The notes beneath the pieces were generated by a model that had not been told where the DNA came from, did no database searches, and saw only the letters and a list, made by a program, of their open reading frames with translations. 64,000 bases of DNA, taken from the NCBI GenBank assembly GCA_964439405.1, contig CAYTOC010000003.1, forward strand, positions 20,480 through 84,479. Direction: 5' to 3'. How positions within the stretch are numbered: position 1 is the stretch's first letter; each line of letters begins with the position of its first letter. The DNA is from an uncultured Candidatus Saccharibacteria bacterium. Lineage in GTDB: Bacteria; Patescibacteriota; Saccharimonadia; Saccharimonadales; UBA4665. Position numbers and translations under genes: made by a program. Positions 8,035 through 63,490 of the stretch are shown piece after piece.

Positions 8035-10188
8035 CTATTTCCCGAGGTCGCGTGGATCTATGGCCATGGCTTTTTCGAGGTTCAGCGCAATAAGAGCCAA
8101 GTCACCTAGGTCGCCATCATATGCAATGTAATCTTTGCGCCAATCAGGCTCGAACTTATTCTTGAACTGTTCAAGGCCAGCGGCTGAGAATCGATTTGCT
8201 GCTACTGTTCGTGCGATTTTCGCGACCTTGCCCTCCATACGTGCGAGCGGTACGAATCCGATGTCAAAGAACTGGTACTTGGCCTCCTCTTCTAAGTAAT
8301 GGAGCAGGCAGTAGAGCAAATAAATGTTGGCATGTGGTGCATCTTCCGTAAAGCGGATAAGGTCAATAGTTGTCTGGTTAGGTGTGTTAAATAGCGGGAT
8401 TTCATTCACAAACGCTACCACCTCACTGCTTTCATTTTTAAGCAGGTGAATACGGCAGCGTTGTAAATATTCGGTATTAAAGTATCCAAGGGCAAAAGAT
8501 TCTTCCTGATGTCCGCCGCGCTGTAGCCACCCATCAGATACCTCGCGTAAACTTTGCATGAGTGCATACGCATGCGGCGGGCTTGCCACCTCATATTGGT
8601 AATTCATCTTTCGACCTTTGTTGTGTTGCCAGCGCCACCACTTATTGTGTGCCGTCTTTGAAACATACTGTTCTATGTTTACTAATGCGCTCGCGCCTAT
8701 GCGCATCGTACCAAGACCGGCCTTTTTGTACAGTGGGAGGGAAGCTTCGTCAACCAAAAGGAAACACGCTCGCCAGTCTCGTTCTTGGCAAAACGCTACA
8801 AATTGATCAAGCAATCGACGCCGGGCCGGGCCGTTCGCCGCAACCGGATCGGCCAGCGCAAAAGCAATTGGCCCTACCACTTTATAGGCGACAAAGCCGT
8901 CACCATGTTGAGGCCAAAAGTATTCTTTGTCTTCAGGCCAGAGCTTGAAGAAATCCTCTGTAGAATTTGATGCAGCCTCAAGTACTGCCTTGGCTTGCTC
9001 GATTTCTTGTATACTCGCCAGCCCTTTTGTGTCCGGTGTGGGCCGGAACATTGCCCAGAACATAAAAAGCACAGCAGCAATTATGAGCAACGTTATCATG
9101 TGTGGGTGAGCAGTAGTATGGGAGTACACGCTAGTGTAGGACAGCAGATAGGCGATGATGGCCATCGCAACAATGACAGCGCTGGCTATAATTACTACAT
9201 CGTAGGTTTTGGATCGCCATGTTTGATGAACCACACCACGATTGAAAAAATCCTTAGAAACAAGGGTTGAGATGAGGGTAAGCATATAAAATCCGAGCAA
9301 AAGCGGCTGCGGCAACAAAACGGAATACTTAATGACCTCCAGACCTAAAAGTACTACGAGCAGCTGCCAAGCACGCCTCTCGCCCCGCATGAGTTGACGA
9401 CCAAGGTAGAGGAAAATAACACCGACGATCATGCTATGGCTAGCGAAGAGCATGGCCTGACTTTCTGTGAATAAGCCTTCAAAAAGCTCAAAGTGCAAGC
9501 TGCCGATTAAGATTGTCGCCAGCCCTTGTAAACTTACCCAGAGCGCTAGAGTAGTATTTACCCAGCTCTGACGCAGCTTGTAGGTTCGATAATTACCCTG
9601 AAGCTCACCCGCTACAAACCAAGCTATCCATATCACCGCACAGCCTTGATAGAAAAATTGCAGCAGTGTTGTGAGGTCATGTGCGTTTGCCCAGCTACTG
9701 ATTAGCAGTAAACCAACAGTCGCTTGCGTTATTAAGAATACTTGTGAAGGAATGCGCTTATTCTTCCATGCGTCCCAAGCGGTTAGTGCAAATAATGCTG
9801 CGGCAACTATTGCAGTTTCGAGCCCGTGAATGATCACCTGGCCGCTAGCGGTCTGCTGGCAAACACCATCAACGATCTGGCACGTTGTAGGTACGATAAG
9901 ATCAGCTAACGCACCAAAGCCTATAATGCTCAGCAGCAGTATTGGCAGGGTGACCTTCTTGCTCTTTACGTACAATCGAACAATAACTAATAGCAGCAGT
10001 ATGGCCGCGATGAATTCGCAGGCCCTAAAGAGCCAGGCGTAGGGCATACCAGGAATAAGAAACTGGCTAATGGAAGTTGCTTGGCTCGATACAATATCAT
10101 TTACAGCTGGCGCAAACAGCCAGCTTGTTGCCAGCAGAATATACGCTACTTGCCACAGATTAACCCAGTTCCGCTTCAGAAACTCCAT
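8035..10188 (-). CDS. mprF: MprF-like protein: polytopic membrane domain + C-terminal aminoacyl-phosphatidylglycerol synthase (DUF2156) domain
   Basis: About 12 TM segments, then DGFVAYKVVGPIAFALADPV...HNKWWRWQHNKGRK...DLIRF, resembling the LysPG-synthase domain. Start set to ATG 10188, 6 nt after TACAAT; the listed start is 10203. Confidence 0.75.
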   Translation of the reverse strand: MEFLKRNWVNLWQVAYILLATSWLFAPAVNDIVSSQATSISQFLIPGMPYAWLFRACEFIAAILLLLVIVRLYVKSKKVTLPILLLSIIGFGALADLIVPTTCQIVDGVCQQTASGQVIIHGLETAIVAAALFALTAWDAWKNKRIPSQVFLITQATVGLLLISSWANAHDLTTLLQFFYQGCAVIWIAWFVAGELQGNYRTYKLRQSWVNTTLALWVSLQGLATILIGSLHFELFEGLFTESQAMLFASHSMIVGVIFLYLGRQLMRGERRAWQLLVVLLGLEVIKYSVLLPQPLLLGFYMLTLISTLVSKDFFNRGVVHQTWRSKTYDVVIIASAVIVAMAIIAYLLSYTSVYSHTTAHPHMITLLIIAAVLFMFWAMFRPTPDTKGLASIQEIEQAKAVLEAASNSTEDFFKLWPEDKEYFWPQHGDGFVAYKVVGPIAFALADPVAANGPARRRLLDQFVAFCQERDWRACFLLVDEASLPLYKKAGLGTMRIGASALVNIEQYVSKTAHNKWWRWQHNKGRKMNYQYEVASPPHAYALMQSLREVSDGWLQRGGHQEESFALGYFNTEYLQRCRIHLLKNESSEVVAFVNEIPLFNTPNQTTIDLIRFTEDAPHANIYLLYCLLHYLEEEAKYQFFDIGFVPLARMEGKVAKIARTVAANRFSAAGLEQFKNKFEPDWRKDYIAYDGDLGDLALIALNLEKAMAIDPRDLGK

Positions 10189-10364
10189 AGGCTCATTGTA
10201 CACCGGCTCTCAGCTGTGGCAGGATGCTCTCGTTAAGAAACGAGGTAGGTATGTTCATAAAATTAAAGCCTGATGCGCAACAAGTAGAAAGAACAGCTGG
10301 CCGTATCAACTAGCAGCTAGGGCTACTTTGCATAGATTTTATGGTCGTCCTTACTCCTTACTCC

Positions 10365-30345: not shown

Positions 30346-31136
30346 ACATATTATATATCGGCGATGTGATGGGTGAGCTTGGGCTTAGAACGGTAGAGCG
30401 GGTTTTACCGCGTTTGCGGGCTGAAAAGCAGATAGATTTCGTGGTGGCGCAGGCGGAGAACGTGACAGATGGTAAAGGTATATCAACGGCGGATTTTGCG
30501 CGTTTGCGTAAAGCGGGCGTAGATTTTTGTACCGGTGGTAACTGGACCATGTGGAATGATGATATTTTTCCAGCGCTAAGTGATCCAAGCCAGCCAATTA
30601 TCCGCCCAGCCAATTATCCGGAGGGCACACCGGGTCTTGGCTATAAGTATGCTGACACGCCAAGGGGTAAGGTGCTCGTGGTGAGTTTGCTTGGTGGCAT
30701 CGTCGGTCGTGATAGCGAGAAGCCCGCAGATAATCCACTGCAGGTTGTTGATGCAATCTTGGCGGATGCCGAGGCGCGGGCCGCAACAGTAGTAAATCTG
30801 CATGGTGACTTCAGTAGTGAAAAGGTGGTCATCGGGCAGTATTTAGACGGCAAAGCAAGTATCGTCGTAGGTGATCACTGGCATGTACCAACAGCAGACA
30901 GTAGGGTGTTGCCAGGCGGAACAGCGCATCAAACAGATGTTGGTATGGTTGGCGCACTTGAAGGTAGTCTGGGCGTTGAACTATCTTCAGTTCTGCCACG
31001 TTGGCGCGACGGTCAGCAGACCCGAAATATACTCATTGAGCATGGTCCGACGCAGTTCAATGCGTTGCTGGTAGACGTTGATGAAACAACCGGCTTAGCA
31101 ATTGCCGCCGAGTCCATCCGTCTAGTTTTTGACTGA
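30342..31136 (+). CDS. ymdB: YmdB-family metallophosphoesterase (TIGR00282-like)
   Basis: MNILYIGDVMG..., AENVTDGKGI, GNWTMW and HGDFSSEK. Confidence 0.9.
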   Translation: MNILYIGDVMGELGLRTVERVLPRLRAEKQIDFVVAQAENVTDGKGISTADFARLRKAGVDFCTGGNWTMWNDDIFPALSDPSQPIIRPANYPEGTPGLGYKYADTPRGKVLVVSLLGGIVGRDSEKPADNPLQVVDAILADAEARAATVVNLHGDFSSEKVVIGQYLDGKASIVVGDHWHVPTADSRVLPGGTAHQTDVGMVGALEGSLGVELSSVLPRWRDGQQTRNILIEHGPTQFNALLVDVDETTGLAIAAESIRLVFD

Positions 31137-33057
31137 CCCCTAGAAAATGAGCGCAATAACTGATATACTTACAAAGTTTTCGGGGATTGGCGCAGTTGGC
31201 TAGCGCGCGCGGTTTGGGACCGCGAGGTCGAAGGTTCGAGTCCTTTATCCCCGACCAAGAAGTATTTTCGCTAAAATCCACCATCATATCGTACGGTGGA
31301 TTTAGCTTTATAACAGAGATAGAGTTGTCACGAGCACGTAGGTTCGACACGACCTCACGATACACTGCATCTTCTTCAATTAAATCTGACGTTTCAAGTA
31401 TGGTTTTAAGATACGAGTGGACGAGTTCGACAAACTCTTCACGGGTCGGCAGTGCTCTCTGCAAATCGTCTAGTTCTTTCTGTGAAGCGGTTATCGTAGC
31501 ATTGACGGCGTTAATCTGTGCTTGATGAAACTCTAGCTTGCCAGTGTGATGCTTTTTATATGTTTCAGGGTCTTCAACTTGAAAGGTTTGATACTTTGAG
31601 TACATATCCTTTTGACGTTTTAGCTCTGCTTTCGCCTCTGTTAGCTTTCTTTTTGCTATATCCTTGTCGATGGCTACTCGCTTCTCGATACGGTCAATAT
31701 ACTGCTTGTGAGCCTCTAGAACATTGGCGGTCATATGACGCATCGTCCATTCGATATGAGCCGTAACAAACCGAGCACTGATGCTCTTTGGAAGCTTCTT
31801 GCCATATACCCTAATCGCTTCTTCGTCATTGTGGCGGATACACTCTTTGTTGCGACAGTAGTACGAAATCTGCCAACTACCAGCGTTCTTGCCTCGTTTG
31901 ATTTGGGCACGTTGAAAGCCCATACCGCCATTGCAGTAGTCACAAATAACTTTCTCACGAAGCAACCCGAAGTCTAGCCGTTTAGCGACGTTACTACGTC
32001 CGACAAACTCCTTGTTAAAGCTATCCGACATATTTTTGCTCAAGGCGATGAACTCGTCTGGTGTCATCAGTGGCAGAAAGTTATACGTATCATTTAGGTT
32101 AGCTATATTGTCACCGTATTTGTAAGCACCTGTATAGAACGGGTCGGCAAACATTGTTGCAACAGTCTTCTTGTCCATCTTTGCTTTTTTGTAAGGGTCG
32201 TCTTGGTTCTTACGAAAGCTAAAGTTCGATACGTTCAAGAAGTCTGCTATCTCTTGGTTGGTCTTGCGGTCTTTGAGCCTCATAACAACGGCTTGACGGA
32301 GTAACTGCCAGTGTACCCCGTCTGGCATAAAACGACCCGTATCAGTGTCTGCATAGTAGCCCTTTTTAACAAGCCCGACGTATTTACCCTCGTGGATAGC
32401 ACCAGTGATACCACGTGCCACATCGACGGCTAACTTGTCGCTATATTGCTTTGATGTAGCAAACAAAATACCAAGCATCATTTTGCCGTTCGGCGTGTTG
32501 TCGAAAGCATATGTACAGAACAACAAGTCCTGTATTTTCTCGTAGTCTACGTGTTCGATAATCTGACCACCCTCTAGCATATTGCGTGACAGACGGTCGG
32601 GCGACCACGATATCAAACCGTGATATTTGCCCCTCTCAAATCCCTCCATAATGTCGTTGAAGATGATACGCTTACCAGAGATTTTTGCCGACTGTCGCTC
32701 CTCGAAAATATCCTCTGGACGGACGTATATACCCATCCTTTTCGCTAAATCTAGGCACTCTTTTCGCTGGTCGTCGATTGACCTAACTTGCTTGCGTTCA
32801 TCATCCGTTGATTTGCGTAGGTAGATTACATAACGTCGCTTCTCTTTAGGTAGTATCTTTCGGCTACCCTCCATCGACTGTACGAAGAAGTCTACAAGAC
32901 CATCAACCGTGTATCTGCTCTCTGGAAGATTGAATAGTTCTGGGTTATCTTTAAGGCTTTCAGCCACAACTTGCTCGGCTTGCTTCAACTGCTTATCACT
33001 AAGCGGTACAAGCAATTGCTTCTTGCGTGTTCTAGTTTTCTTATCACCTGTAGCCAT
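31057..33057 (-). CDS. large serine recombinase (resolvase domain + recombinase domain + zinc ribbon + coiled coil)
   Basis: YVIYLRKSTDDERKQVRSIDDQ (catalytic Ser), SWSPDRLSRN and CDYCNGGMGF...YYCRNKEC. Start set to ATG 33057. There is no stop codon before the element boundary, so the last 66 codons are antisense tRNA-Pro and host DNA. Confidence 0.85.
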   Translation of the reverse strand: MATGDKKTRTRKKQLLVPLSDKQLKQAEQVVAESLKDNPELFNLPESRYTVDGLVDFFVQSMEGSRKILPKEKRRYVIYLRKSTDDERKQVRSIDDQRKECLDLAKRMGIYVRPEDIFEERQSAKISGKRIIFNDIMEGFERGKYHGLISWSPDRLSRNMLEGGQIIEHVDYEKIQDLLFCTYAFDNTPNGKMMLGILFATSKQYSDKLAVDVARGITGAIHEGKYVGLVKKGYYADTDTGRFMPDGVHWQLLRQAVVMRLKDRKTNQEIADFLNVSNFSFRKNQDDPYKKAKMDKKTVATMFADPFYTGAYKYGDNIANLNDTYNFLPLMTPDEFIALSKNMSDSFNKEFVGRSNVAKRLDFGLLREKVICDYCNGGMGFQRAQIKRGKNAGSWQISYYCRNKECIRHNDEEAIRVYGKKLPKSISARFVTAHIEWTMRHMTANVLEAHKQYIDRIEKRVAIDKDIAKRKLTEAKAELKRQKDMYSKYQTFQVEDPETYKKHHTGKLEFHQAQINAVNATITASQKELDDLQRALPTREEFVELVHSYLKTILETSDLIEEDAVYREVVSNLRARDNSISVIKLNPPYDMMVDFSENTSWSGIKDSNLRPRGPKPRALANCANPRKLCKYISYCAHFLGVSQKLDGWTRRQLLSRLFHQRLPATH
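31181..31257 (+). tRNA. tRNA-Pro(UGG), CCA encoded; integration target
   Basis: CGGGGAT/ATCCCCG acceptor, CGCGG-TTTGGGA-CCGCG anticodon arm, TTCGAGT T-loop. Confidence 0.95.
31240..31257 (+). repeat. attL core GTCCTTTATCCCCGACCA (3' end of the intact tRNA-Pro)
   Basis: Identical 18-mer at 36978-36995. Confidence 0.85.
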
Positions 33058-33120
33058 ACTGCCTATCATTATAGCTTGTAATATAGGTTCGACGTTTTTC
33101 TGGTATATAATAAGACCACA

Positions 33121-33852
33121 ATGAACTTCACTTGCCCATACTGTAACCACGCTACGACGATAACCGACCCGAACAAGTACAACCTCTGGGAAAAGGTAGC
33201 CATAAAACAAAATAACACAAATTACACCCACGATATCGGCGTTGGATTTTTAGTTATTGCTTGTCCAAATCAAGACTGTAAGGAGCTCACAGTAACTTCA
33301 AGACTAACTGGGTCAAAAACTGGCTACAACCAAGTGCAAGGTAGCTTCAATGCACCAGATGCGAGTACCTTATACAAAGAGTGGCGACTAGTGCCAGATA
33401 CAGACGCCAAACCTCAGCCAAGCTATATACCCAAGCAACTGGTGCAGGATTATACGGAAGCGTGCAAGATTAGAGATTTAAGCCCTAAAGCATCTGCCAC
33501 CCTTGCTCGTCGTTGCCTACAGGGTATGATACGAGACTTTCACGGTGTTAAAGACAAGAAGTCTTTGTACGATGAAATTGACGCCCTGAAAGGGGTTATC
33601 CCTACAAGCGAGTGGGACGCACTGGACAGCCTACGTTCTATTGGTAACATCGGTGCTCATATGGAAAAGGACGTTGACCTTATCATAGACGTCACATCCG
33701 AAGAGGCTAATACTCTAATTGCTTTCATCGAGTATCTTTTTAAACAATGGTATGTAAAGCGTCACGACGACGAAGAGAACTTACGTGCCGTTAAGGCAAT
33801 TGCTGGCATTAAAAAGGCTCAGAAGAAGCCTGCCCCTGAAAAATCTGAGTAG
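33121..33852 (+). CDS. Zn-ribbon + DUF4145 domain protein
   Basis: CPYCNH...CPNQDC N-terminus, then ARRCLQGMIRDFHG...LRSIGNIGAHME...LIAFIEYLF, the DUF4145 helical-domain pattern. The -10 box ends 9 nt upstream of the ATG. Confidence 0.75.
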   Translation: MNFTCPYCNHATTITDPNKYNLWEKVAIKQNNTNYTHDIGVGFLVIACPNQDCKELTVTSRLTGSKTGYNQVQGSFNAPDASTLYKEWRLVPDTDAKPQPSYIPKQLVQDYTEACKIRDLSPKASATLARRCLQGMIRDFHGVKDKKSLYDEIDALKGVIPTSEWDALDSLRSIGNIGAHMEKDVDLIIDVTSEEANTLIAFIEYLFKQWYVKRHDDEENLRAVKAIAGIKKAQKKPAPEKSE

Positions 33853-33880
33853 TCTACATCTACCGACACCCAATAATAGT

Positions 33881-33889
33881 TGCTATAAT
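33881..33889 (+). promoter_or_regulatory. extended -10 promoter TGcTATAAT
   Basis: Consensus extended -10. The predicted transcription start site (TSS, ~33896) coincides with the first base of the P1 stem of the downstream structured RNA. Confidence 0.5.
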
Positions 33890-33895
33890 CAGATT

Positions 33896-34045
33896 GTCTA
33901 GCTTGTTTAATACGCAATAATTTACCGCTCGGCTTTTGCCGTAATGGTTTTTAGCTTTAGAAAGGGGCATCGCCCGAAACAGTAAGCTAAAACTTATTGC
34001 GGAACAAACAGGCTAGACACCCGTTGGCGGTGTCCCTTTTTATTT
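33896..34045 (+). ncRNA. candidate structured RNA (sRNA or riboswitch-like leader) with an intrinsic terminator
   Basis: Nested helices. P1 is 33896-33908/34006-34018 (13 bp, one G-U). P2 is 33913-33920/33994-34001 (8 bp). P3 is 33949-33957/33984-33992 (9 bp). Small hairpins at 33930-33941 and 33965-33975. Terminator stem 34016-34034 followed by TTTTT. Confidence 0.45.
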
Positions 34046-34088
34046 AAGGCACTTCTACGGTTACAGCAACTAAATAGGAGTGTCTAAA

Positions 34089-34316
34089 ATGAAAGACCGC
34101 AAAACTTACAAAATACTAACCGCTTGTAGTTTCATACTACCGATTAACCGATGGTATCTCGGCAACGGCAAGGGTGCTATCGGGCGAAGTATCAGTGCCA
34201 ATTATTTGCTTATGGGTTGGCTCGGTGACCTGTTTTATATGGACAAGACTTTTGACGAGGCTATGGCTAAGCGTGGTTTTGCAAACACCAACATCCGAAA
34301 CGAGCAGGGTCGTTAG
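34089..34316 (+). CDS. small degenerate TM2-domain-like protein
   Basis: INRWYLGNGKGAIGRSISANYLLMGWLGDLFYMD resembles the TM2 motif. AGGAG lies 8 nt upstream of ATG 34089. Confidence 0.5.
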   Translation: MKDRKTYKILTACSFILPINRWYLGNGKGAIGRSISANYLLMGWLGDLFYMDKTFDEAMAKRGFANTNIRNEQGR

Positions 34317-34319
34317 ATT

Positions 34320-36242
34320 TTATATACCAAATTGCTTCAGTATAGCTTCTGCTAAGTCGTGCAGTTTTGGAGCATCTGTTTTGAATGTGCTTTTAGGAGT
34401 ATATTTCGAGACGCTAACTTTAATCGCCATCAGGATGTCGTCTATTTCCTGCTTCTTGTCTTTCTTTGTTTTGCCCTCTTCTGATATTTCTTTCTGAAGA
34501 TGCAAGGTCAACTGATTACAAAATGGCGTTTTTTCATCTAGAGTGATATCGGCAACACCATTCTTCTTAAACTGCTTATTGGCCTCACTCTGAACAAAGG
34601 TCATAGGCAAAGCGTCTTCAATCGTACCGTCCTCAATAATGTCACCGTTTAAGTTACGTATTGTATGGACATTACCCTTAAATAACTTGTCGCCAATTTT
34701 TTCGATTTCCTTTTTCATTTTTTTGCCTTGTTCATCATCGTCGGTCATTACCATCGAGGAGACCCTATAGAACGCCATAAGAGTAGCGGTTGCGACAATA
34801 GTGTTACCCGTGCCATTTGCAATCGAAATGTTATGGTCTTTGTTTATCTTCGCAAGAGCAGTCTCTAGCAAGTTCTTGTCGGTCGCACCCTCTACCAACA
34901 GCTTACGTTCTGGCAAGAAGTCAGCAATGACGTTGATACCGAATGCAGATTTCAAAATGTCGTCGTTCGTTATGTCCTCTTCAGTTTTGATTTGGCGTGA
35001 CTGAGTAAGTCCAGCTTTACTTTTCGTCAGCAAGTAGTGCCTATCCTTGGTTTTTTCGTCAATCATAAAGTTTGAATGGGTAGAGATGAACAGGTAGTTG
35101 TTTTTGCCTATCTCCAGCAGTTCGTCTCGCATCCAGCGTATACCAGACGGGTGCAGATGTACTTCTGGTTCGTCAATTAGCACCAAATGGTCTTTTACGT
35201 CACCAGACAAACTACTTATTGAGATACTCAAAAGCATTGACACAAACTGCTTGAAACCCTGACTTCTGTCGGACATATTGAAGCGGTTGGATTTGTCAGA
35301 CTTGTCTTTAACATAAACATAGGCACTCAGGTCGCTCTCTACTCGAACTTCAATTTCGATTTCGTGTTCATTCCACTTCTTGTTGAGGTACTCAGTTGAC
35401 TTGGTACCTAGAGTGTCGCCAAGCTTGAGGCGTTCATTGTTGGATTTTTCGGCTTCGTTAACAATTGCCGTTATATCCTTGTCAGTTGTATACCCTGCTA
35501 AGTAGAAAATGTTCTTTAGTGGGATATTAGCATCTGTCGATTTAATAAAATCTTTAAGCTGTACTTGTTCTGGCACTAGATACTTGTCTTTTTCTTCCGA
35601 CTTCCATACGTCCACTGGAATATCGTGAGCCGTTACATAATCGAGCAATGCTTGCTTGATGATATCCTTGAAGCTCTCTGCATCAAGTTGCGTGTACGTC
35701 TCTTTCTCTTCGTCCGTAAGCTCTGAGTTAGCCTTTATGGTAACGGTTTCCTCGGCACTGGTAGCTGGCGTTGTCGGTGTGGCAGGCGTGCTAGCAGACA
35801 CTTTGATGTAACTGTATTTTTTAACATCTACTTTATTCGCCTCGTAGTCACAATCGACTTCGTACTGGTCGAAACCTTTTTGCAAGTACATCTCTTTGTA
35901 GAGCTTCGTTATCTTTAGGTTATCTAAAAGTTGTTGCGGTATGGTGATTGCTTGAGCTATTGCACTGCGGTAGTCGTCTTCGTCATCTGTCTCAAATCCG
36001 AAAAATACTGACACGATACTAGCGTCTACACCTTGTTGCTTATTCTTGTAGTCTTCGAAAGCGACGGTGTCTTTATTCTGTGGCGTAGCCATAGCATCAA
36101 GTACATTGCTTTTACCAGTTTCATTTTTACCGATGAGAATTGTAGTGTAACTTGCACTCTCGCCCTTGCCATATTTCGTGACAGGGAAATCAAGTTCCTC
36201 GATGGACTTGTACCCTCTGATTTTTATTTCAACAAGCTTCAT
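34320..36242 (-). CDS. OLD-family nuclease (ABC-type ATPase + C-terminal Toprim), stand-alone
   Basis: Walker A GKNETGKSN, Walker B/D-loop LVLIDEPEVHLHP, and Toprim LLVEGATDKNLL with MTDDDEQG. Confidence 0.85.
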   Translation of the reverse strand: MKLVEIKIRGYKSIEELDFPVTKYGKGESASYTTILIGKNETGKSNVLDAMATPQNKDTVAFEDYKNKQQGVDASIVSVFFGFETDDEDDYRSAIAQAITIPQQLLDNLKITKLYKEMYLQKGFDQYEVDCDYEANKVDVKKYSYIKVSASTPATPTTPATSAEETVTIKANSELTDEEKETYTQLDAESFKDIIKQALLDYVTAHDIPVDVWKSEEKDKYLVPEQVQLKDFIKSTDANIPLKNIFYLAGYTTDKDITAIVNEAEKSNNERLKLGDTLGTKSTEYLNKKWNEHEIEIEVRVESDLSAYVYVKDKSDKSNRFNMSDRSQGFKQFVSMLLSISISSLSGDVKDHLVLIDEPEVHLHPSGIRWMRDELLEIGKNNYLFISTHSNFMIDEKTKDRHYLLTKSKAGLTQSRQIKTEEDITNDDILKSAFGINVIADFLPERKLLVEGATDKNLLETALAKINKDHNISIANGTGNTIVATATLMAFYRVSSMVMTDDDEQGKKMKKEIEKIGDKLFKGNVHTIRNLNGDIIEDGTIEDALPMTFVQSEANKQFKKNGVADITLDEKTPFCNQLTLHLQKEISEEGKTKKDKKQEIDDILMAIKVSVSKYTPKSTFKTDAPKLHDLAEAILKQFGI

Positions 36243-48077: not shown

Positions 48078-49613
48078 TTAGCTCTCTTGAAAGACTTCGA
48101 TTTGGGCACCGATAGTATTCAGGCGCTTTGCCAGGTCTTCATAACCGCGATTGATTGAATAGACATCGCGCAGGATTGACTGCCCTGGCGCGGCCAGCAT
48201 GGCAAGCAAAATGATAACTGATGGCCGGAGGGCAGGCGGCGCCACCACATCTGCAGGTTTCCACTTGGTTGGACCGGTGATATACACGCGGTGCGGGTCA
48301 ACTAATTCTATCTTTGCATTGAGCTTTGAAAGCTCAGTAAAGTAAATGGCGCGGTTTTCGTACGCCCAATCGTGGACAAGCGTTCGGCCGTGTGCAGCAG
48401 TAGCGATGAGGCCTAAGAATGGTAAGTTATCTTGGTTTATGCCAGGGAATGGTAGTGCGTGCAATTTGTCTTTGGCGGCGTGGAGGTCGGATTTATGTAT
48501 AGTCACGTCAACAAGCCGTGTGGCGCCATTATGCGCAAGATATTCTGAGCTGAGGCTGTACTGCAACCCCATACCCTCAAGTGTTGCCAGCTCGACTTCC
48601 AGAAACTCAATCGGTGCGCGCGTGATAGTAATCTCAGATCTTGTAACGACTGCCGCGGCGATGAAGCTCATCGCCTCAATCGGATCCTCACTTGGGTAGT
48701 ATTCGACGTTCTTTTTGATTGAACGTACGCCATGCACTTTTAGAATTGTCGTGCCAATGCCTTCAATCTTCACGCCGAGTTTCTGCAGAAAGAAACACAG
48801 GTCTTGAATTGCATAGTTAGGGCTGGCATTACGAATAACAGTCTCGCCCGGAAAGAGAGCCGCCGCCATAAGAATATTTTCGGTAACAGTATCACCACGT
48901 TCGGTTAGCAAGATCGCCCGATTAGGTGCTTTTTCTGTAACGGTCGCGTGATAGTAATCAGTCCCAGGGCGAGCCTCAACGTCCATACCAAATTCTCGCA
49001 ATCCAACCATATGCGGCTCGACGGTGCGCGTACCTAGGTCGCAGCCGCCGGCAAATGGCAGCTTGAAATCGTTGTATTGATGCAATAGAGGGCCGAGGAA
49101 CATAATGACGGTGCGTGTGCGCTTGGCGGCATTGATGTCCATTTTTTCAAGTTGCAGACGAGCAGGCGGTATAATCTCAAGGTCGTTTTCGTCATTTAGC
49201 CAGCGTACTTTGACGCCAATGCTAGTGAGCACCTCAATAATACGGTTTACTTCTTCAATACGTGCGACGCGACGCAAGATAGTTGTGCCTTTGTTGAGCA
49301 AGCTCGCACAGAGCAGGCCAACCGCAGCGTTCTTGCTGGTTTTGACTTCAATTTCACCGGATAGTTTATGTCCACCGTGTACGCGAAAATTCAGTTTACC
49401 CGACTGGTTGAGTGTTACAAGGTTACTTGACAGCACGTCGCTAATGCGTGCTATCATCTCAATGCTGATATTTTGTTTACCCTTTTCGATGCGGTTAATC
49501 GCACTCTGACTTGTATTAATAGCGCTGGCCAGTTGTGCTTGTGTCAGGCCTCGATTGCGGCGGGTCTCTTGTATAAGTGAGCCAATTCTAGCTTTATATA
49601 CATCAGTATCCAT
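48078..49613 (-). CDS. murA: XRE-type HTH domain fused to UDP-N-acetylglucosamine 1-carboxyvinyltransferase (MurA)
   Basis: Residues ~10-65 read RGLTQAQLASAINTSQSAINRIEKGKQNISIEMIARI. The rest is full-length MurA (FRVHGGHKLSGEIEV.TSKNAAVGLL, FAGGCDLGTRTVEPH). Confidence 0.9.
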   Translation of the reverse strand: MDTDVYKARIGSLIQETRRNRGLTQAQLASAINTSQSAINRIEKGKQNISIEMIARISDVLSSNLVTLNQSGKLNFRVHGGHKLSGEIEVKTSKNAAVGLLCASLLNKGTTILRRVARIEEVNRIIEVLTSIGVKVRWLNDENDLEIIPPARLQLEKMDINAAKRTRTVIMFLGPLLHQYNDFKLPFAGGCDLGTRTVEPHMVGLREFGMDVEARPGTDYYHATVTEKAPNRAILLTERGDTVTENILMAAALFPGETVIRNASPNYAIQDLCFFLQKLGVKIEGIGTTILKVHGVRSIKKNVEYYPSEDPIEAMSFIAAAVVTRSEITITRAPIEFLEVELATLEGMGLQYSLSSEYLAHNGATRLVDVTIHKSDLHAAKDKLHALPFPGINQDNLPFLGLIATAAHGRTLVHDWAYENRAIYFTELSKLNAKIELVDPHRVYITGPTKWKPADVVAPPALRPSVIILLAMLAAPGQSILRDVYSINRGYEDLAKRLNTIGAQIEVFQES

Positions 49614-56838: not shown

Positions 56839-57204
56839 TTACTCCAGGTGCTTTTTAACGAGTTCAGCAACTTGTCGTGGCGTCATATCCGCTTTCGCAA
56901 TGACTGTGAGCACGCCGAGTTCTTTGATTTTGGGCGGTATCTCTTGCTCGCCCATGTTGGTCAGGATAATAACTTTCGTGTTTTTCCCCCAATCACTGGC
57001 GCGCAGCTTCTCAAGCATTTCGTCACCGTTCATCTCCGGCATCATGAGATCAAGCAGGATAATATCCGGGCGCATCGTTTCGGCGAGCTCTAAACCAAGC
57101 TGACCGTTCTCTGCCGTTTCAACCTCATAGCCTTCAGCTTGAAATTTCATCAAGTACATCTGAGATATAGCGGCATCATCTTCAATAATTGCAATCTTTG
57201 TCAT
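56839..57204 (-). CDS. receiver-only (CheY-like) response regulator
   Basis: IAIIEDD...DIILLDLMMPEMNG...ILTN. No output domain. TGcTACAAT lies 6 nt upstream of the ATG. Confidence 0.9.
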   Translation of the reverse strand: MTKIAIIEDDAAISQMYLMKFQAEGYEVETAENGQLGLELAETMRPDIILLDLMMPEMNGDEMLEKLRASDWGKNTKVIILTNMGEQEIPPKIKELGVLTVIAKADMTPRQVAELVKKHLE

Positions 57205-57371
57205 GCACTTATTGTAGCACCATATCTATGCTCTCATGCTCCTTACGGCTAGCATCTTCTTGTGAACCTGCCGCCCACTCGCTTGATTAAGAGAATGCCT
57301 CGTGATACGCTGCTAGCAGAGATTAGCACTTAAGCTATACAGACATAAAACAAAAACTCTCTAATAGTTAC

Positions 57372-58130
57372 ATGTACACATTGCCAAACCACGAGATTAT
57401 ACCCGAGGTTACCTCGCCAGTATTCCAGGCGCACCCTGAAGCGGTTTTTGCGGCCGGGTTATTGGCGGTGGGGGGTGAAGTTCGTCCAGGTCTTGAGCAT
57501 GCATACACTGGCTATTTAAAGCTGCGCGCAAATGTGTATGGACGTCAAACGGGGCTCGTCGGAGCTGATCATATTACCGAGAGCGGGCTTGAGGTTGATC
57601 AGGATGATGCACGTTCGGCTCACTTTGGTATTCTTGAAAACGTAGGGAATGGTCATCAGCGGGTAGTTGGCTCAATGCGTATTATTACCAAAAATACGGA
57701 TGCTGAAGCGCCATTACCAACCGAAGCATACTTTGCCGAAGAATTTCAGGACCATAATGTACCAGCAGGTAAAAGTGAACTGTCACGATATATTCTGCGG
57801 CACGAAGTTACGCGTACCCAAGACAGGCTTAAATGGCCTCTGTATAAAGCAGTTACGGCATTTGTACTGGCTGAGAGTCTAGAGCCGACATATTGCGTAA
57901 TTGAGTCAGAGCTGGAGAGAAACTTTAAGGCTAATCGATTACCCGTAAGCCGCGTCACTGAGGCAAAAGCAATCGAAGATTACGACAATACGATAAACGC
58001 CGCAGTTCGCGTTGATATGACTCAGCTCGGTCGTATGCTGGGCATAGACGACGGATCCGCACAAGAGCTCGCATACGGCTTCAGCTTTTATGATGAGCAT
58101 CTGCGAAACGTTGATAAATACGCTGCGTAA
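57372..58130 (+). CDS. GNAT-fold N-acyltransferase of the LuxI / FeeM (N-acyl amino acid synthase) type
   Basis: YLKLRANVYGRQTGLV...GLEVDQDDARSAHFGIL...VVGSMRII...ELSRYIL matches the Acetyltransf_5/autoinducer-synthase-like pattern by eye. Confidence 0.55.
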   Translation: MYTLPNHEIIPEVTSPVFQAHPEAVFAAGLLAVGGEVRPGLEHAYTGYLKLRANVYGRQTGLVGADHITESGLEVDQDDARSAHFGILENVGNGHQRVVGSMRIITKNTDAEAPLPTEAYFAEEFQDHNVPAGKSELSRYILRHEVTRTQDRLKWPLYKAVTAFVLAESLEPTYCVIESELERNFKANRLPVSRVTEAKAIEDYDNTINAAVRVDMTQLGRMLGIDDGSAQELAYGFSFYDEHLRNVDKYAA

Positions 58131-58148
58131 TGTCATGATAGTCAACCA

Positions 58149-59105
58149 ATGAGAGATATAAACTCACCTGAATTAGCGCGTAACTACGGCTTCTGGAACG
58201 AAGACGAACAACGTGCCCTGCTAGCTGCTCGTGTAGCAATCGCGGGCGTCGGAGGGGATGGCTATCAACTTGGTCTTAAGCTAGCTCAGCAAGGTGTACA
58301 GAATTTCTCCATAGCTGATCCTGAGGTATTTGAACCGGAGAACACTAACCGCGTTCCGGGTGCAAAACAGTCAACGTATGGCATGAATAAAGCAGAGGGT
58401 TTCCGTCAAGAATTGTTTGATATTAACCCCGAGGCGAAGGTGCGGATTTTTACTGAAGGTGTCACGCAGGATAACGTAGCGGACTTTATGAGCGGCGCCA
58501 CACTGCTGCTTGATGAGTCCGAACTAACCAAACCGGCTATTGGCACCATGCTTGCGCGGCAAGCGCGCAGGCAAAATATACCGAATCTGCTTGTCATGAA
58601 CATAGGATTTGCAGCACAAGCAACATCATTTGGTCCTCAGGCAAGGGCAACGTTTGAGCGTTTTATGGGTGTTCCAGACGGTATGCCGATTGACGAAATT
58701 AACGAAGCGGTTAGTGTTGATCTCAGCCGCTGCATAGCCTATATCCCGCCGTATCTTGATCTCAGAACATTCCGTTCCGTCGTTGAATCTGCTGGCGTGG
58801 ACTCTGACGTACACGTGCCGTTGCCGTCTATCGCTCAAGGTGTTGATGTTGCTGCAGGGCTTGGCGGTGCTCAAGCTTTCTTGCATATAGTTCGCGGCAT
58901 TAAAAATCACCGGCCCGAGCCAGTATGGTTCCCTAAAGTGGCATATATGGATGCCTATAACGTAAAAAGTGGCGTAACACGTTTTCCGCGCCTGTCGCAT
59001 AAAGCTTTCCTACTCAGAGCTTTGGCAAAAAATACTGCCGGCATAAACCCCCGTGCAAGCTACACACTAGAAGACATCCAGCGGCGTCAATCTAACGCGC
59101 GCTAA
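58149..59105 (+). CDS. ThiF/MoeB/HesA-family E1-like adenylyltransferase
   Basis: RVAIAGVGGDGYQLGLKLAQQGVQNFSIADPEVFEPENTNR and LLLDESE (Rossmann GxGxxG + Asp). Confidence 0.8.
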   Translation: MRDINSPELARNYGFWNEDEQRALLAARVAIAGVGGDGYQLGLKLAQQGVQNFSIADPEVFEPENTNRVPGAKQSTYGMNKAEGFRQELFDINPEAKVRIFTEGVTQDNVADFMSGATLLLDESELTKPAIGTMLARQARRQNIPNLLVMNIGFAAQATSFGPQARATFERFMGVPDGMPIDEINEAVSVDLSRCIAYIPPYLDLRTFRSVVESAGVDSDVHVPLPSIAQGVDVAAGLGGAQAFLHIVRGIKNHRPEPVWFPKVAYMDAYNVKSGVTRFPRLSHKAFLLRALAKNTAGINPRASYTLEDIQRRQSNAR

Positions 59106-59152
59106 GGTACCGTCTATTCTCATCGAGGCTCAGAGGTAGTAAGATAGTGGTA

Positions 59153-61339
59153 ATGCTTTTCTATCTGCTCGCTAATACCGTTGTTGTTGCGCTTCTTATT
59201 ACGCTGAGTATAGCCGTAGGGCTCAGGGGCATGTCGCAGAAAATTAATCGTACCTTTGTCTATTTTGCGCTGTCTTTAAGTACCTGGATAACTGCAAACT
59301 ACGTCAGTAATGATACAAGCCTTTCCCCCGAGGCTGCCCTTATACCGAATTACGTAGTGTTCTTTAGCAGCTATGTGGCCATGGTATTTTTGCTACGTTT
59401 TATTATTCTCGTGGCCGGCAACAGGCCTGCAGAACAGTGGTTTAAGCGGCTGTTGATACCAATTATCGCCGTTGCAGTTATCGCACCAACGCCGCTCGTG
59501 GTGGGCGGGGTCGAACAACAGGGAAATCTCTATGCAATTACATTTGGTCCGCTCGCACCAGTCTACTTTATTGCGCTGCTTGCGGTGATTATATGGGGCT
59601 TGGTGCTGCTTTATGTGAGCCACCGGCGGGCCACCGGCGCTACTCGGGCAAGACTGCATGCCATATTGCTTAGCTGGGCTTGGACATTGCCGGTGGCATT
59701 ACTGGCAAACGTCATTTTGCCTGTTATGACTGGCTGGTTTGGCCTCTCTAACCTCGGTGTTCTGCCGTTGTTTATCTTAGTCTTCGGGCTATATTATGCC
59801 GTATCACGGCACCGGCTTTTTGATATCCGTTTGGTATTAGTGCGGTCGCTTGGCTATGCCTTATCAATAGGCATGCTCGCACTACTTTACGCTGCTGTTA
59901 TCTTTGGTTTACTCACATTTGTGTTTAAACTCAGCGTGCCTTTAGCCGACCAGTTAATTATTTCTGTGTTCATTGCCCTAATCACGCTGCTATTTCAGCC
60001 CATTAAAAACTTTTTCAACCGCGTAACAAAGCAGCTGTTTTATCGCGATGCGTATGACATGCGTGAACTAGTGGATCAGCTGAACCAAATTTTTATGAGT
60101 ACGGTGCAACTCGATATGCTGCTGTCAAAAACTGCCATAGTGCTTGCCGACACCGTCAAAGCCAAAGACATTTTGATAGGCCTCGATATACATACGGGTC
60201 GTGATGCTTCGTATTACAGTACAAGGAAACGTCCGGCCCCGGTTGCTGAATTAAAAGCACTCAAAGAATATATGGCAACAACGGGCATGGAAGTGCTTCT
60301 TATTGATGACTTACCACCCGAGCACGCAGAGCTAAAAGACGCGTGTCTTACAAAAGATATCGCATTACTTGCTCGGGTAACAGATGATCATCATACAGCC
60401 GAAGGTGCAGTAGGTTATATTATTTTCGGGCCAAAAAAGAGCGGCAACAGCTATTCCCGGCAGGATGCAGATATGGCGAGTACGGTCGCGAAAGAGTTGT
60501 ATCTTGGCGTCAGGAATGCTTCGCAGTTTGAAGAGATTCAACAATTTACCGTCACGCTGCAAGAAAAGGTAGAGGAAGCTACAGCGCAGCTTCGTCGTAC
60601 CAATGAGAAACTCAAGGCGCTCGACGAGACCAAAGATGATTTCATCAGTATGGCCTCCCACCAACTGCGTACGCCGCTGACAAGTGTTAAAGGTTATCTG
60701 AGTATGGTGCTTGAAGGCGATGCAGGCAAACTAACTGAGCCGCAGAAGAAGATGCTGACTCAGGCGTACGTCAGTAGCCAACGCATGACCTACGTTATTT
60801 CAGATTTGCTAAATGTATCACGGCTTAAAACGGGTAAATTTGTGGTTGAACTTTCGCCTGTTAATCTGGCTGAAATGGTGCAACAGGAGCTTGCGCAGCT
60901 TGAGGAAGCCGCCAGAGCGCGCAGTATTAATTTATCGTTCACCCAGCCGGATTCATTGCCGTCGCTGCAACTTGATGAAACAAAAACGCGCCAGGTCATT
61001 ATGAATTTTGTCGACAATGCAATCTACTACACCCAGCCAGGCGGCAATATTGAGATTGCCGTGACTGAGAGTGATAAAGCCGTACAGCTGACAGTCACGG
61101 ATACCGGTATTGGTGTGCCAAAATCCATGCAGCATAAGTTGTTTACGAAGTTCTACCGGGCGCCGAACGCCAAAAGTGCCCGACCAGATGGTACGGGTTT
61201 GGGGCTGTTCATGGCCAAGAAGGCTGTCGTTGCGCAAGGCGGTGCAATTATCTTCAAGAGCGAAGAAGGTAAGGGCAGTACCTTCGGGTTTAGTTTTCCT
61301 AAAGACGCGGCTCCTACAGGATCACAAGTTTTTGCATAA
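59153..61339 (+). CDS. sensor histidine kinase with a ~7-TM N-terminal domain
   Basis: Multi-TM N-terminus, HisKA FISMASHQLRTPLT and HATPase TDTGIGV...GTGLGL. Start is either GTG 59147 or ATG 59153. Confidence 0.9.
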   Translation: MLFYLLANTVVVALLITLSIAVGLRGMSQKINRTFVYFALSLSTWITANYVSNDTSLSPEAALIPNYVVFFSSYVAMVFLLRFIILVAGNRPAEQWFKRLLIPIIAVAVIAPTPLVVGGVEQQGNLYAITFGPLAPVYFIALLAVIIWGLVLLYVSHRRATGATRARLHAILLSWAWTLPVALLANVILPVMTGWFGLSNLGVLPLFILVFGLYYAVSRHRLFDIRLVLVRSLGYALSIGMLALLYAAVIFGLLTFVFKLSVPLADQLIISVFIALITLLFQPIKNFFNRVTKQLFYRDAYDMRELVDQLNQIFMSTVQLDMLLSKTAIVLADTVKAKDILIGLDIHTGRDASYYSTRKRPAPVAELKALKEYMATTGMEVLLIDDLPPEHAELKDACLTKDIALLARVTDDHHTAEGAVGYIIFGPKKSGNSYSRQDADMASTVAKELYLGVRNASQFEEIQQFTVTLQEKVEEATAQLRRTNEKLKALDETKDDFISMASHQLRTPLTSVKGYLSMVLEGDAGKLTEPQKKMLTQAYVSSQRMTYVISDLLNVSRLKTGKFVVELSPVNLAEMVQQELAQLEEAARARSINLSFTQPDSLPSLQLDETKTRQVIMNFVDNAIYYTQPGGNIEIAVTESDKAVQLTVTDTGIGVPKSMQHKLFTKFYRAPNAKSARPDGTGLGLFMAKKAVVAQGGAIIFKSEEGKGSTFGFSFPKDAAPTGSQVFA

Positions 61340-61401
61340 ATAGCACAAAAGTAGTTTTATATATTGACAAAAAGCTCATGTTATGGTAACATTAGAGCAT
61401 C

Positions 61402-62484
61402 ATGTCAGATTTTGTACAAGGCACTATAGAACGAACTGGAGAAAGCTTTGCGAATCTCCTAACGACTCAGGCGGAACAGCCGTGGGTTGTTGTCGGTGTG
61501 GGTGCAGCCGCAGTTGCGAGTGTGCTAGCCGTGCATCTGAAGGAGCGCCATGCACAGCCACAATTTGCTATTGAGTCACCAAACCCAGCTGCGCTTGAGT
61601 ACGCGCTGCAAAACACAAAAACTGGCGAACGCGATGCAGCGGTGACCAAAGCGGCTTTTCGCCGTGAATTCTGGCCAAAGGCGGCTGCACTGACCGGTGC
61701 GGGTCTTATTGTCGCAAACGCTTTTGGGGGTATTAGCTACGAAACGGTAGAGCCCAATGAAGATGCGAATACGATTGTTGTGCTTGACGCCAATTACGCT
61801 ATGGGCGCAGAAGATCTAGGCCAAAGTGGTATTTCACGTCACGATGCGGTGCTAAGTGGTCTTGAAGCGGCTACAAACGTGACTCCTGGCAGTGTCGGTG
61901 TGCTTGAAACAGCGGCGAACGCAGAGGTACGGATACCAGTTGGTAATACATGGGCAGAGCAGTTGTCATTGCTTGAAGAACCTATTGTGAACCAAAACGG
62001 TACACAACTACACATTGATACGGCGCTTTCGTTGTTACCGCAAACGGGAGAGTTAGTTGACGAAACGCCGCAGCGCGATGGGTCAATTGTAATTATTACG
62101 AGTGGTATTGCGGCAAATGCCGAGTCACTCGCTGCTAGTGCAGAGAAACTGGCTGCAGAGGGTGTAGATGCGCATGTAGTAATTACTGGTACGACCGGTG
62201 AAGGCGCAACGTATAGTGTCGCGGGTGGTGCGCCAGTAGCCGCACCAGCAAATGTCGCGCCATTTATAGAGGCATTTGGTGATGACGCAGTGCATCAGGC
62301 GACATCAGTAGAAGAAGTAGAGACGGCCGTTGTGGCCGCTCTTGAAGATAGTTCAAGCATTGAGACGAAGCAGCCTTCGCTAGCAGTTGGTGCACTTGGC
62401 GCTGCGTTACTTGCGAGTAGCCTGGGCTGGTTCGTTGCACGTGGATCTACAGTGGCAGCTAAGTTTAAGCGGAAGAAGAATTAA
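61402..62484 (+). CDS. membrane protein with vWA-like domain (degenerate MIDAS) and C-terminal TM + basic tail
   Basis: IVVLDANYAMG and SIVIITSGIA resemble vWA strands. Positioned upstream of moxR and the DUF58 gene. Confidence 0.45.
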   Translation: MSDFVQGTIERTGESFANLLTTQAEQPWVVVGVGAAAVASVLAVHLKERHAQPQFAIESPNPAALEYALQNTKTGERDAAVTKAAFRREFWPKAAALTGAGLIVANAFGGISYETVEPNEDANTIVVLDANYAMGAEDLGQSGISRHDAVLSGLEAATNVTPGSVGVLETAANAEVRIPVGNTWAEQLSLLEEPIVNQNGTQLHIDTALSLLPQTGELVDETPQRDGSIVIITSGIAANAESLAASAEKLAAEGVDAHVVITGTTGEGATYSVAGGAPVAAPANVAPFIEAFGDDAVHQATSVEEVETAVVAALEDSSSIETKQPSLAVGALGAALLASSLGWFVARGSTVAAKFKRKKN

Positions 62485-62497
62485 AGGAGATTATGAT

Positions 62498-63490
62498 ATG
62501 AGTATTTCACCAGAAGTTGCATTGCGCCGTGAAGCGGCTCAAGTGCTTGGAGAATTAAACGCAGAGATTAGTAAGAACATTATTTTGCCAGACCATGAGC
62601 GAGAAGTGCTTGTCGGTGCATTCGCAATCGGCGCACATATTCTTGACGAAGGTGCTCCAGGTACGGGTAAAACCCACTTGGCAAACACGTTTGGCCGGAT
62701 AGTGGATAATTTTGCAGTTGGACGCGTACAGGGTACACCTGAAACGACATCAAACGACATCATTGGCGTGTCTATACCTCGTGCTGGTACCGGCCGCAGT
62801 GGTGGCTTGCCAAAGTTTGATCTTTTTGAAGGACCGCTTCTTAAAGCAAACCTATTGCATGTTGATGAAGGTAACCGCATGAACACAAGAGTGCAGGCAG
62901 CACTTCTTGAAGGCATGCAAGAAGGTAAGGTTACCGTGTTTGGCCAGGACTATGAGTTGCAGAAACCCTTTGTAACGATGTTTACGCAGAACCCCAATGA
63001 AATTGGGCAAGGCACAAACCCACTGACCAAGGCACAGCGTGACCGCTTTACTGTTTCTGTGGAGCAGCCTGCGCTGAGCGAAGCAGCCATGATAGCTGTT
63101 GATGACCTCAATCACGAACCAGCTGTTGTTGCAGATATTGAGGAGCTTGTAAAGGTTGCCGCCGCTGCACGAACTGTAGAAGTTTCTCGTGAGATGAAAG
63201 AACGAGCCGCACGGCTTGTGGTTGCACTCAGGAGTTTTGAAGGAGTTGATCCACTTGAGAGTACACTTGACGGCGCACGCGGTATTCAACATACACTGCG
63301 TATGGCTCGTGTACGTGCACTCCGCCAGGGCAGGGTTGCAGTGACCCAAGAAGACATCTATAGAACGGCAATGTTTACGCTCCCTCATCGTATTGGTATG
63401 AAATTTGAAGCTGAGAACATAACTTCAAAAGACATCGTTTTTGACGCAATTAGCTCAATCATTAAACCAACACGCCAATCAACTAAGTAA
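62498..63490 (+). CDS. MoxR-like AAA+ ATPase
   Basis: LDEGAPGTGKTHLA, LLHVDEGNRM and NPNEIGQGTNPLTKAQRDRF. AAGGAG SD. Confidence 0.9.
   Translation: MSISPEVALRREAAQVLGELNAEISKNIILPDHEREVLVGAFAIGAHILDEGAPGTGKTHLANTFGRIVDNFAVGRVQGTPETTSNDIIGVSIPRAGTGRSGGLPKFDLFEGPLLKANLLHVDEGNRMNTRVQAALLEGMQEGKVTVFGQDYELQKPFVTMFTQNPNEIGQGTNPLTKAQRDRFTVSVEQPALSEAAMIAVDDLNHEPAVVADIEELVKVAAAARTVEVSREMKERAARLVVALRSFEGVDPLESTLDGARGIQHTLRMARVRALRQGRVAVTQEDIYRTAMFTLPHRIGMKFEAENITSKDIVFDAISSIIKPTRQSTK

Follow-up and report, generated by a model that had tools for sequence, protein, structure and literature searches.

A possible oxidase-less relative of the N-acyl oxazolone operons, linked to a two-component sensor, in Saccharibacteria

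In a 64,000-nucleotide stretch of DNA from an uncultured Candidatus Saccharibacteria bacterium (contig CAYTOC010000003.1, positions 20,480 to 84,479; hereafter the window), we analyzed three co-directional genes that encode an N-acyl amino acid synthase (NAS)-like acyltransferase, a ThiF-like adenylating enzyme, and a seven-transmembrane (7-TM) sensor histidine kinase, together with a divergently transcribed receiver-only response regulator. On balance, and with a confidence only slightly better than even, we read this operon from its sequence as an oxidase-less relative of the oxzAB/tyzACB/trzAS N-acyl oxazolone operons that has been joined to a dedicated two-component sensor, the product being sensed by the kinase. 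The oxidase-less clade, its strict coupling to a kinase in Saccharibacteria, and the presence of a sister clade in Microbacteriaceae all look new. An earlier note on this DNA, which drew on the nucleotide letters and predicted open reading frames (ORFs) only, had proposed four genes here, and the ORFs and Pfam searches bear out both their positions and their domain calls:

56839..57204, minus strand: receiver-only response regulator (121 aa; Pfam Response_reg only)
57205..57371, no strand assigned: divergent intergenic region, read from sequence
57372..58130, plus strand: N-acyl amino acid synthase-like acyltransferase (NAS; FeeM/LuxI fold, OxzA/TyzA/TrzA-like), 252 aa
58149..59105, plus strand: putative ThiF-like ATP-dependent adenylating cyclase (TyzB / OxzB-ThiF-domain-like), 318 aa
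59147..61339, plus strand: sensor histidine kinase, 730 aa, with a 7-TM N-terminus, a weakly GAF-like middle, HisKA, and HATPase_c

The acyltransferase and ThiF genes are separated by 18 nt, exactly as first reported, and the ThiF and kinase genes by 41 nt, where about 45 nt had been given. The divergent gap between the receiver and the acyltransferase measures 167 nt.

The two enzymes form a conserved functional unit and not a chance association, because their genes are adjacent in every related locus and fused in some of them. Homologs of the ThiF-like protein number more than 500 at about 60% identity, and a ThiF-profile scan of one genome per species returned 71 loci, which belong to Saccharibacteria, Microbacteriaceae (Leucobacter, Agreia, Herbiconiux, Cryobacterium, Cnuibacter, and Rathayibacter), and two Acidimicrobiales metagenome-assembled genomes (MAGs). 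The close homologs are labeled Saccharimonadales or Leucobacter by their sources, and a cluster look-up of the ThiF representatives gave no informative names. In 77 of 77 related loci, the ThiF gene has an acyltransferase homolog directly upstream; in many of the actinobacterial loci the stop and start codons of the two genes overlap, and in two of the 77 (L072 and L075) the pair is a single ORF. Further fusions came from an exhaustive ThiF-profile search of 1.84 billion representative proteins (50%-identity clusters), in which 12 of the best 150 matches were NAS-ThiF fusions; Pfam confirmed two of the 12 as combining Acetyltransf_5/FeeM/Autoind_synth with ThiF. Conservation of the two genes as neighbors was the check by which the earlier note had proposed to judge its pairing, and the pair passed it strongly, through adjacency in all 77 loci and repeated fusion, which extends over many lineages. 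A word-index search for the acyltransferase itself recovered just three to five proteins, the family being too divergent for this approach, so that its spread was traced via the ThiF neighbor; three of the word-index homologs all lie in the identical gene context. The same ThiF group contains fusions of other kinds, including a methyltransferase-ThiF-FeeM protein (P0272, 949 aa) and a ThiF-glycosyltransferase protein (P0215, 746 aa), which hint at further tailored N-acyl amino acid products.

The earlier note did not recognize this combination of enzymes as a described pathway, a statement that is now out of date. A FeeM/LuxI-fold N-acyltransferase together with a ThiF-like ATP-dependent cyclase constitutes the published N-acyl oxazolone pathway, which is used by OxzAB, TyzACB, and TrzAS (bioRxiv 10.1101/2020.06.11.147165; PMC10404671; PMC12856293). 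The Pseudoalteromonas rubra enzymes are OxzA and OxzB, the latter a ThiF-nitroreductase fusion (bioRxiv 10.1101/2020.06.11.147165) that, according to a 2025 review, is the one ThiF-like enzyme with a known small-molecule substrate. In M. tuberculosis, the N-acyl tyrazolone pathway comprises TyzA, TyzB, and TyzC (Rv2336, Rv2338c “MoeW,” and Rv2337c, respectively), of which TyzA is an amino-acid N-acyltransferase whose nearest structures are FeeM and BjaI, and TyzB is a stand-alone 318-aa ThiF homolog (PMC10404671). The same organism encodes TrzA and TrzS (Rv1356c/Rv1355c), TrzS being a fusion of ThiF with a flavin oxidase (FDO) domain; its D217A substitution abolishes cyclization, which takes place before desaturation, and the saturated cyclized intermediate was detected (PMC12856293).

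The window operon resembles the Tyz system in its operon-like arrangement of a separate FeeM/BjaI-fold N-acyltransferase and a stand-alone ThiF protein of equal length (318 aa), TyzB being an enzyme that carries out ATP-dependent cyclization of a small molecule. By contrast, the Tyz pathway has a separate flavin-dependent oxidase, TyzC, for which no counterpart was found at the window locus, and the neighbors reported for the tyz genes are cysK1, cysE, and mmpL9, with no mention there of a dedicated kinase (PMC10404671). With the Oxz and Trz systems, the window operon shares the order of acyltransferase followed by ThiF and the adenylation aspartate (TrzS D217, window D122). In addition, cyclic di-GMP (c-di-GMP) genes adjoin trzAS in M. 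tuberculosis, for which a signaling role was raised by the authors (PMC12856293), as they adjoin the pair at the Leucobacter, Agreia, and Acidimicrobiales loci. Unlike OxzB and TrzS, the window ThiF has no FDO domain, although a Saccharibacteria homolog at the equivalent locus L083 does.

The acyltransferase has the FeeM/LuxI (GCN5-related N-acetyltransferase, GNAT) fold of an NAS and adjoins the ThiF gene, as in the oxazolone systems. Its AlphaFold2 model (pLDDT, a per-residue confidence score, 89.3) retrieved from the PDB with Foldseek the CoA-dependent N-acyl-homoserine lactone (AHL) synthase BjaI first (E 1.5e-9), then LasI, RpaI, EsaI, MesI, and TofI, and afterwards FeeM, so that the earlier LuxI/FeeM-like call stands; BjaI and FeeM are also the structural neighbors reported for TyzA. 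The sole Pfam family whose threshold it passed was Acetyltransf_5 (PF13444; 26.4 bits against a cutoff of 22.4). The FeeM family matched below cutoff at 17.4 bits, and Autoind_synth (PF00765) reached 19.0 bits against a cutoff of 24, which leaves the protein outside that family, whereas some of its homologs do pass (e.g., P0135 at 30.3 bits). Seven residues (R52, D76, D79, R103, E136, S138, and R139) are invariant in 23 acyltransferase homologs.

The C-termini of the acyltransferases have a recurrent feature, in that many homologs end in -AA (KYAA in the window, 58119-58130) and many of those from Herbiconiux in -GG. Apart from these endings, the tails differ in length and sequence, and where the two enzymes are fused they form a linker inside the protein. 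We treat the -AA and -GG endings as linker remnants or as overlap with the ThiF ribosome-binding site, and the idea that the acyltransferase C-terminus is itself a ThiF substrate was rejected on account of the same variability and conversion to linkers.

The ThiF-like protein matches Pfam ThiF at 78.6 bits, with the domain beginning at about residue 8. Of the NCBIfam models, PRK08223 scores highest, with 139 bits across residues 8-279 (under the equivalog cutoff of 266), and ThiF-FDO and NAS-ThiF fusions are among the nearest relatives of the protein; with an intact adenylation site, it falls with the oxazolone-cyclase group. Every clade examined retains G33/G35/G36/G38, D57, N65/N67/R68, K81, and D122 without variation; within the ThiF adenylation motif, we equate D122 with TrzS D217. 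The lone cysteine of the window protein, C195, is not conserved, many relatives having Phe or Trp at this position, and the ThiF alignment contains no CxxC (zinc) motif. The AlphaFold2 model (pLDDT 82.6) has a generic E1 fold for which ThiF, MoeB, PaaA, and MccB are equally good structural matches; for the top structural match, AclA (9egb), our literature search returned nothing. It had been suggested that the proposal would fall if this gene were the ordinary MoeB/ThiF of a cofactor pathway. This is not the case, as every cofactor and tRNA equivalog lies far below its cutoff (MoeB 45 vs. 449 bits, ThiF 49 vs. 275, and TcdA 40 vs. 304, with the curated MoeZ model likewise far under), and there is no ThiS/MoaD-like gene in the neighborhood. 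The best PDB sequence match is TcdA (E 1e-11), the tRNA ct6A synthase, which is likewise E1-like and closes the carboxylate of an N-carbamoyl amino acid into an oxazolone-type ring. However, the substrate of TcdA is tRNA, whereas an acyltransferase gene invariably accompanies the window gene. Against the model of the TrzS group, the Rv1355c family, the window protein scored 50.7 bits with a cutoff of 476.

The flavin oxidase was sought in six-frame ORFs with seven FDO domains taken from ThiF-FDO fusions and with a hidden Markov model (HMM) built from them. No match at E ≤ 1 was obtained in the whole window or in the first 82 related loci, and among 26 later loci the HMM matched at E ≤ 1e-3 only in L083 and L084, which are the ThiF-FDO fusion loci. 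A nitroreductase-superfamily flavin oxidase, fused or adjacent as in the oxazolone systems, was thus not found within the 64-kb window, and no nitroreductase is present in the Pfam-annotated Leucobacter neighborhoods. At the two exceptional loci, on metagenome contigs (L083:5213-10157 and L084), ThiF is fused to an Acg/TrzS-like flavin oxidase in a protein of 636 aa. This protein, P0130, was the fifth-best representative match in the exhaustive search, and it scores 132 bits with the Rv1355c family and 127 bits with the Acg-family FMN oxidoreductase model. The loci that encode it carry folD, murI, murD, three receivers, a 261-aa acyltransferase, the ThiF-FDO gene, and a 735-aa kinase, in the same order as in the window. 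A further ThiF-FDO fusion, P0217, passes PRK08223 (390 bits vs. the cutoff of 266), aligns over its full length to PRK14851, and matches the TrzS model “Rv1355c family” via its FDO domain. Oxidase-containing and oxidase-less versions therefore coexist among Saccharibacteria-type loci, and the oxidase-less clade suggests that the pathway exists without the oxidase and has a different product.

The kinase exceeds the Pfam cutoffs for HisKA_7TM (31.2 bits), HisKA (60.6 bits), and HATPase_c (89.8 bits), with weak GAF matches in its middle region (E 0.04-0.2), and the receiver protein matches Response_reg at 74.4 bits and has no output domain; together they have the make-up of a two-component system. 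In a set of 50 Saccharibacteria-type loci, some of which are near-duplicates, the kinase gene is directly downstream of ThiF in 47 of 47, and the acyltransferase gene is upstream in 46 of 46, counting those in which the contig is long enough. Receiver orthologs (phmmer E 1e-40 to 1e-59) occur upstream of the pair in 39 of the 50 loci, often accompanied by one or two receiver-only paralogs; of the 11 loci lacking one, ten extend less than 1.4 kb upstream, and the remaining locus, L051, has none within 5 kb. The linkage also holds in reverse: a metagenome scan seeded on the 7-TM sensor motif yielded 24 loci, and ThiF was directly upstream in all 24. Moreover, the receiver and kinase neighbors are kept by three deeply diverged versions of the pair, namely separate genes, the NAS-ThiF fusion (L075), and the ThiF-FDO version (L083). 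In cqsA-cqsS and luxM-luxN, one or more signal-synthase genes reportedly lie directly beside the gene for a multi-TM histidine kinase whose ligand is the hydrophobic product; the window enzymes likewise adjoin a multi-TM histidine kinase. The differences are that other enzyme families are involved, that the regulators of the window have no output domain, and that a ligand-receptor relation in the window is only conjectured.

One Saccharibacteria lineage has an extra 267-aa gene between ThiF and the kinase (L025:6979-7782, L086:4094-4897, and L087). The protein has no Pfam or PDB match and belongs to no recognizable family (best E 0.016); its role could be that of a further tailoring enzyme or of an accessory factor.

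These observations can be combined into a putative pathway. First, judging from homology, the 252-aa acyltransferase would N-acylate an amino acid. Second, homology and the adenylation residues suggest that the 318-aa ThiF protein would adenylate this N-acyl amino acid at its carboxylate and so drive an intramolecular cyclization, presumably with no thioester step because the enzyme has no conserved cysteine. The product might be a saturated 5(4H)-oxazolone, similar to the saturated TrzS intermediate, or another cyclized or activated derivative; a saturated product is expected because no flavin oxidase was found and TrzS cyclizes before it oxidizes. Third, gene linkage suggests that the 7-TM/GAF-like kinase may sense the lipid-like product, or else the N-acyl amino acid from which it is made, and would then phosphorylate the divergent receiver-only regulator or regulators. 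Because these receivers lack a DNA-binding domain, the output would be protein-protein and not directly transcriptional. That the genes make and sense a small acylated molecule was one of the options raised in the earlier note, and it is the one we favor, given the strict kinase linkage and the known NAS plus ThiF pathway, from which we infer both the product and its sensing.

Several points weigh against this interpretation. Every characterized pathway includes a flavin oxidase. To our knowledge, Saccharibacteria are generally thought to lack fatty-acid synthesis, which makes the source of the acyl donor a problem. In water, saturated oxazol-5(4H)-ones are labile as well as reactive, which would make them awkward as diffusible signals. 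Even the tyrazolones hydrolyze within hours at pH 8 (bioRxiv 10.1101/2020.06.11.147165). The kinship with the Tyz/Trz/Oxz enzymes, as judged from sequence, is indirect but consistent, in that it comes from curated models and from fusion proteins. Linkage alone, in turn, fits a kinase that senses the product as well as a kinase pathway that controls or uses the enzymes. Finally, no shared receptor domain is detectable at the sequence level across the two phyla that carry the pair, as described below for Microbacteriaceae.

The strongest alternative, which we regard as unlikely but worth serious attention, is that the N-acyl amino acid or oxazolone lipid serves the membrane itself, as a structural or protective constituent, and that the kinase and receiver belong to an envelope-stress circuit located beside the enzymes or controlling them, with the product not serving as a ligand. 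Precedents include the proposals made for C12-tyrazolone in M. tuberculosis and the ornithine lipids made by PF13444 enzymes. PF13444, the only family that the acyltransferase enters above cutoff, includes lipid N-acyltransferases such as OlsB, and the Saccharibacteria locus adjoins murD, murI, and folD. Tryptazolones, furthermore, are mostly intracellular, and the tyz genes are tied to oxidative stress (PMC12856293). However, receiver-only regulators would provide no direct transcriptional control of the operon, the mur neighbors are absent from the Microbacteriaceae loci whereas regulators or sensors are always there, and every relative of the kinase sensor domain that was recovered lay beside the pair (24 of 24 loci).

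Classical quorum sensing, in which a true LuxI-type synthase would make an AHL from S-adenosylmethionine (SAM) and acyl-CoA, the kinase would be a LuxN-like receptor, and ThiF would be accessory or unrelated, appears improbable. CoA-dependent AHL synthases are indeed the top structural matches of the acyltransferase, one homolog carries the JGI name “N-acyl-L-homoserine lactone synthetase,” and the protein contains the pattern R...ExDxxD...R...ExSR, which we take to be the LuxI-type motif. LuxI homologs are also found next to sensor kinases in other candidate phyla radiation (CPR) phyla, according to a quorum-sensing survey in whose supplementary tables neither “ThiF” nor “adenylyltransferase” appears (PMC7567580). 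Nevertheless, the Autoind_synth score is below its cutoff, Leu62 stands where LuxI spacing would put an aromatic residue, and ThiF, for which a lactone-forming LuxI would have no need, accompanies the acyltransferase without exception and is repeatedly fused to it. TyzA, for all that it shares these structural neighbors, is an amino-acid N-acyltransferase (PMC10404671), and the NAS activity of TyzA, OxzA, and TrzA argues against the use of SAM.

Least probable by far is chemistry on a peptide or protein C-terminus, as considered in the earlier note, in which ThiF would adenylate a ribosomal peptide or a ubiquitin-like C-terminus (cf. MccB, PaaA, and E1) and the GNAT protein would be a modifying or immunity acyltransferase: the E1 fold is equally close to ThiF, MoeB, PaaA, and MccB, PADLOC returned weak E1-E2 matches, and many of the GNAT homologs end in -AA or -GG, but the ThiF domain starts near residue 8 with no N-terminal peptide-clamp or RiPP-recognition element ahead of it, C195 is unconserved and CxxC is missing, the GNAT tails are variable and serve as internal linkers in fusions, the additional domains seen in the closest relatives are NAS or FDO and not E2, JAB, or peptide-binding ones, no E2/JAB partner or precursor gene was found, and the 18-nt, 41-nt, and 167-nt gaps contain no conserved small ORF. 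The earlier note had likewise seen no precursor-peptide or ubiquitin-like ORF, and we found none here either. Both this idea and the AHL synthase are therefore disfavored, because ThiF is obligatory and often fused, the LuxI score is sub-threshold, and a peptide-binding domain, a conserved cysteine, and a precursor ORF are all lacking. A defense-system reading was also dropped, since the PADLOC matches of ThiF to E1-E2 models are weak and cover only the Rossmann core; the acyltransferase had no PADLOC match.

In Microbacteriaceae, the pair occurs without the 7-TM kinase, and a divergent gene for a protein of about 286 aa is present in all 47 loci. This protein has no Pfam match, and a profile comparison with the PDB relates it to TetR-family regulators (E 1e-5). 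Beyond the TetR-like gene, c-di-GMP or kinase-like proteins occur in most genera: Leucobacter, Agreia, and Cryobacterium encode a multi-TM GGDEF-EAL protein; Herbiconiux has a 405-aa HATPase_c protein near the pair, and one Acidimicrobiales MAG has a divergent PAS-GGDEF-EAL protein. We considered whether the kinase N-terminus and the N-terminus of the Leucobacter GGDEF-EAL protein share a sensor domain, and rejected this, as the two are not homologous (hhalign probability 0.8%, BLASTP E 0.24).

In a rough neighbor-joining tree, built without bootstraps, the window sequence is placed in a Saccharibacteria clade, the Microbacteriaceae form the sister clade, and the Acidimicrobiales, including the fusions, fall outside; each clade appears monophyletic. 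Because the clades appear monophyletic and sister, the tree suggests one old inter-phylum transfer and not repeated recent ones. For one Saccharibacteria strain, TM7i, Leucobacter has been documented as the host (PMC9894109).

The regulatory neighbors on both sides of this divide suggest, from gene content, a signaling role for these poorly understood lipids. A more far-reaching possibility, which we put forward tentatively and consider unlikely, is that cyclized N-acyl amino acids (a saturated oxazolone, or a lactone or lactam formed with a side-chain nucleophile) constitute a new class of autoinducer, read by a 7-TM kinase in Saccharibacteria and by a TetR-like receptor and c-di-GMP enzymes in Microbacteriaceae, so that the epibiont may speak, or eavesdrop on, the chemical language of its host. 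Communication between epibiont and host is conceivable because the clades are sister and Leucobacter is a known host genus. The physiological role of bacterial N-acyl oxazolones was called “a major unresolved question” by the authors of the trzAS study (PMC12856293), and the autoinducer reading, if true, would supply the role that is missing. A natural pair of synthase and candidate receptor makes the oxazolone signaling hypothesis directly testable. The retention of the system in very small Saccharibacteria genomes, with a sister clade in a family that contains a known host genus, makes it a candidate for epibiont-host communication.

With regard to expression of the locus, an extended -10-like element, TGCTACAAT, lies on the minus strand at 57219-57211 and ends 6 nt before the receiver ATG, and neither the receiver gene nor the acyltransferase gene is preceded by a Shine-Dalgarno sequence. 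The leaderless-type promoter that the earlier note had assigned to the receiver is thus plausible at TGCTACAAT on sequence grounds, as far as this element and the missing Shine-Dalgarno sequence are concerned; the generic consensus promoter scan listed nothing at this position and nothing above chance. Over the locus as a whole, the promoter and terminator consensus scan did no better than on shuffled sequence.

The genes that flank the operon are of a kind typical for Saccharibacteria. Upstream, the window contains murB, folD, murI, and murD. Downstream, after the kinase gene, the plus strand (61402-63490) encodes a 360-aa protein with weak resemblance to VWA and an ATPase of the MoxR-type AAA_3 family. 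These two genes are kept downstream in at least two other Saccharibacteria loci (L007 and L019), and a promoter-like site at 61364-61392 precedes them, separate from the operon.

Elsewhere in the window, positions 31057-36242 encode a 724-aa serine-recombinase (Resolvase) protein and a 640-aa AAA_15/AAA_21 (AbiEii-like) ATPase, and the GC content falls to 0.42-0.44 between about 32 and 38 kb; the 31057-36242 stretch is probably an integrated mobile or defense island. On the minus strand at 48078-49613, a MurA-like protein of the EPSP_synthase family begins with an HTH_3 DNA-binding domain, a combination that is unusual in cell-wall enzymes. Also on the minus strand, at 8035-10203, a 722-aa protein carries a C-terminal LPG_synthase_C domain (MprF-type aminoacyl-phosphatidylglycerol synthase), which represents another lipid-aminoacylation function in a genome that is expected to scavenge its lipids.

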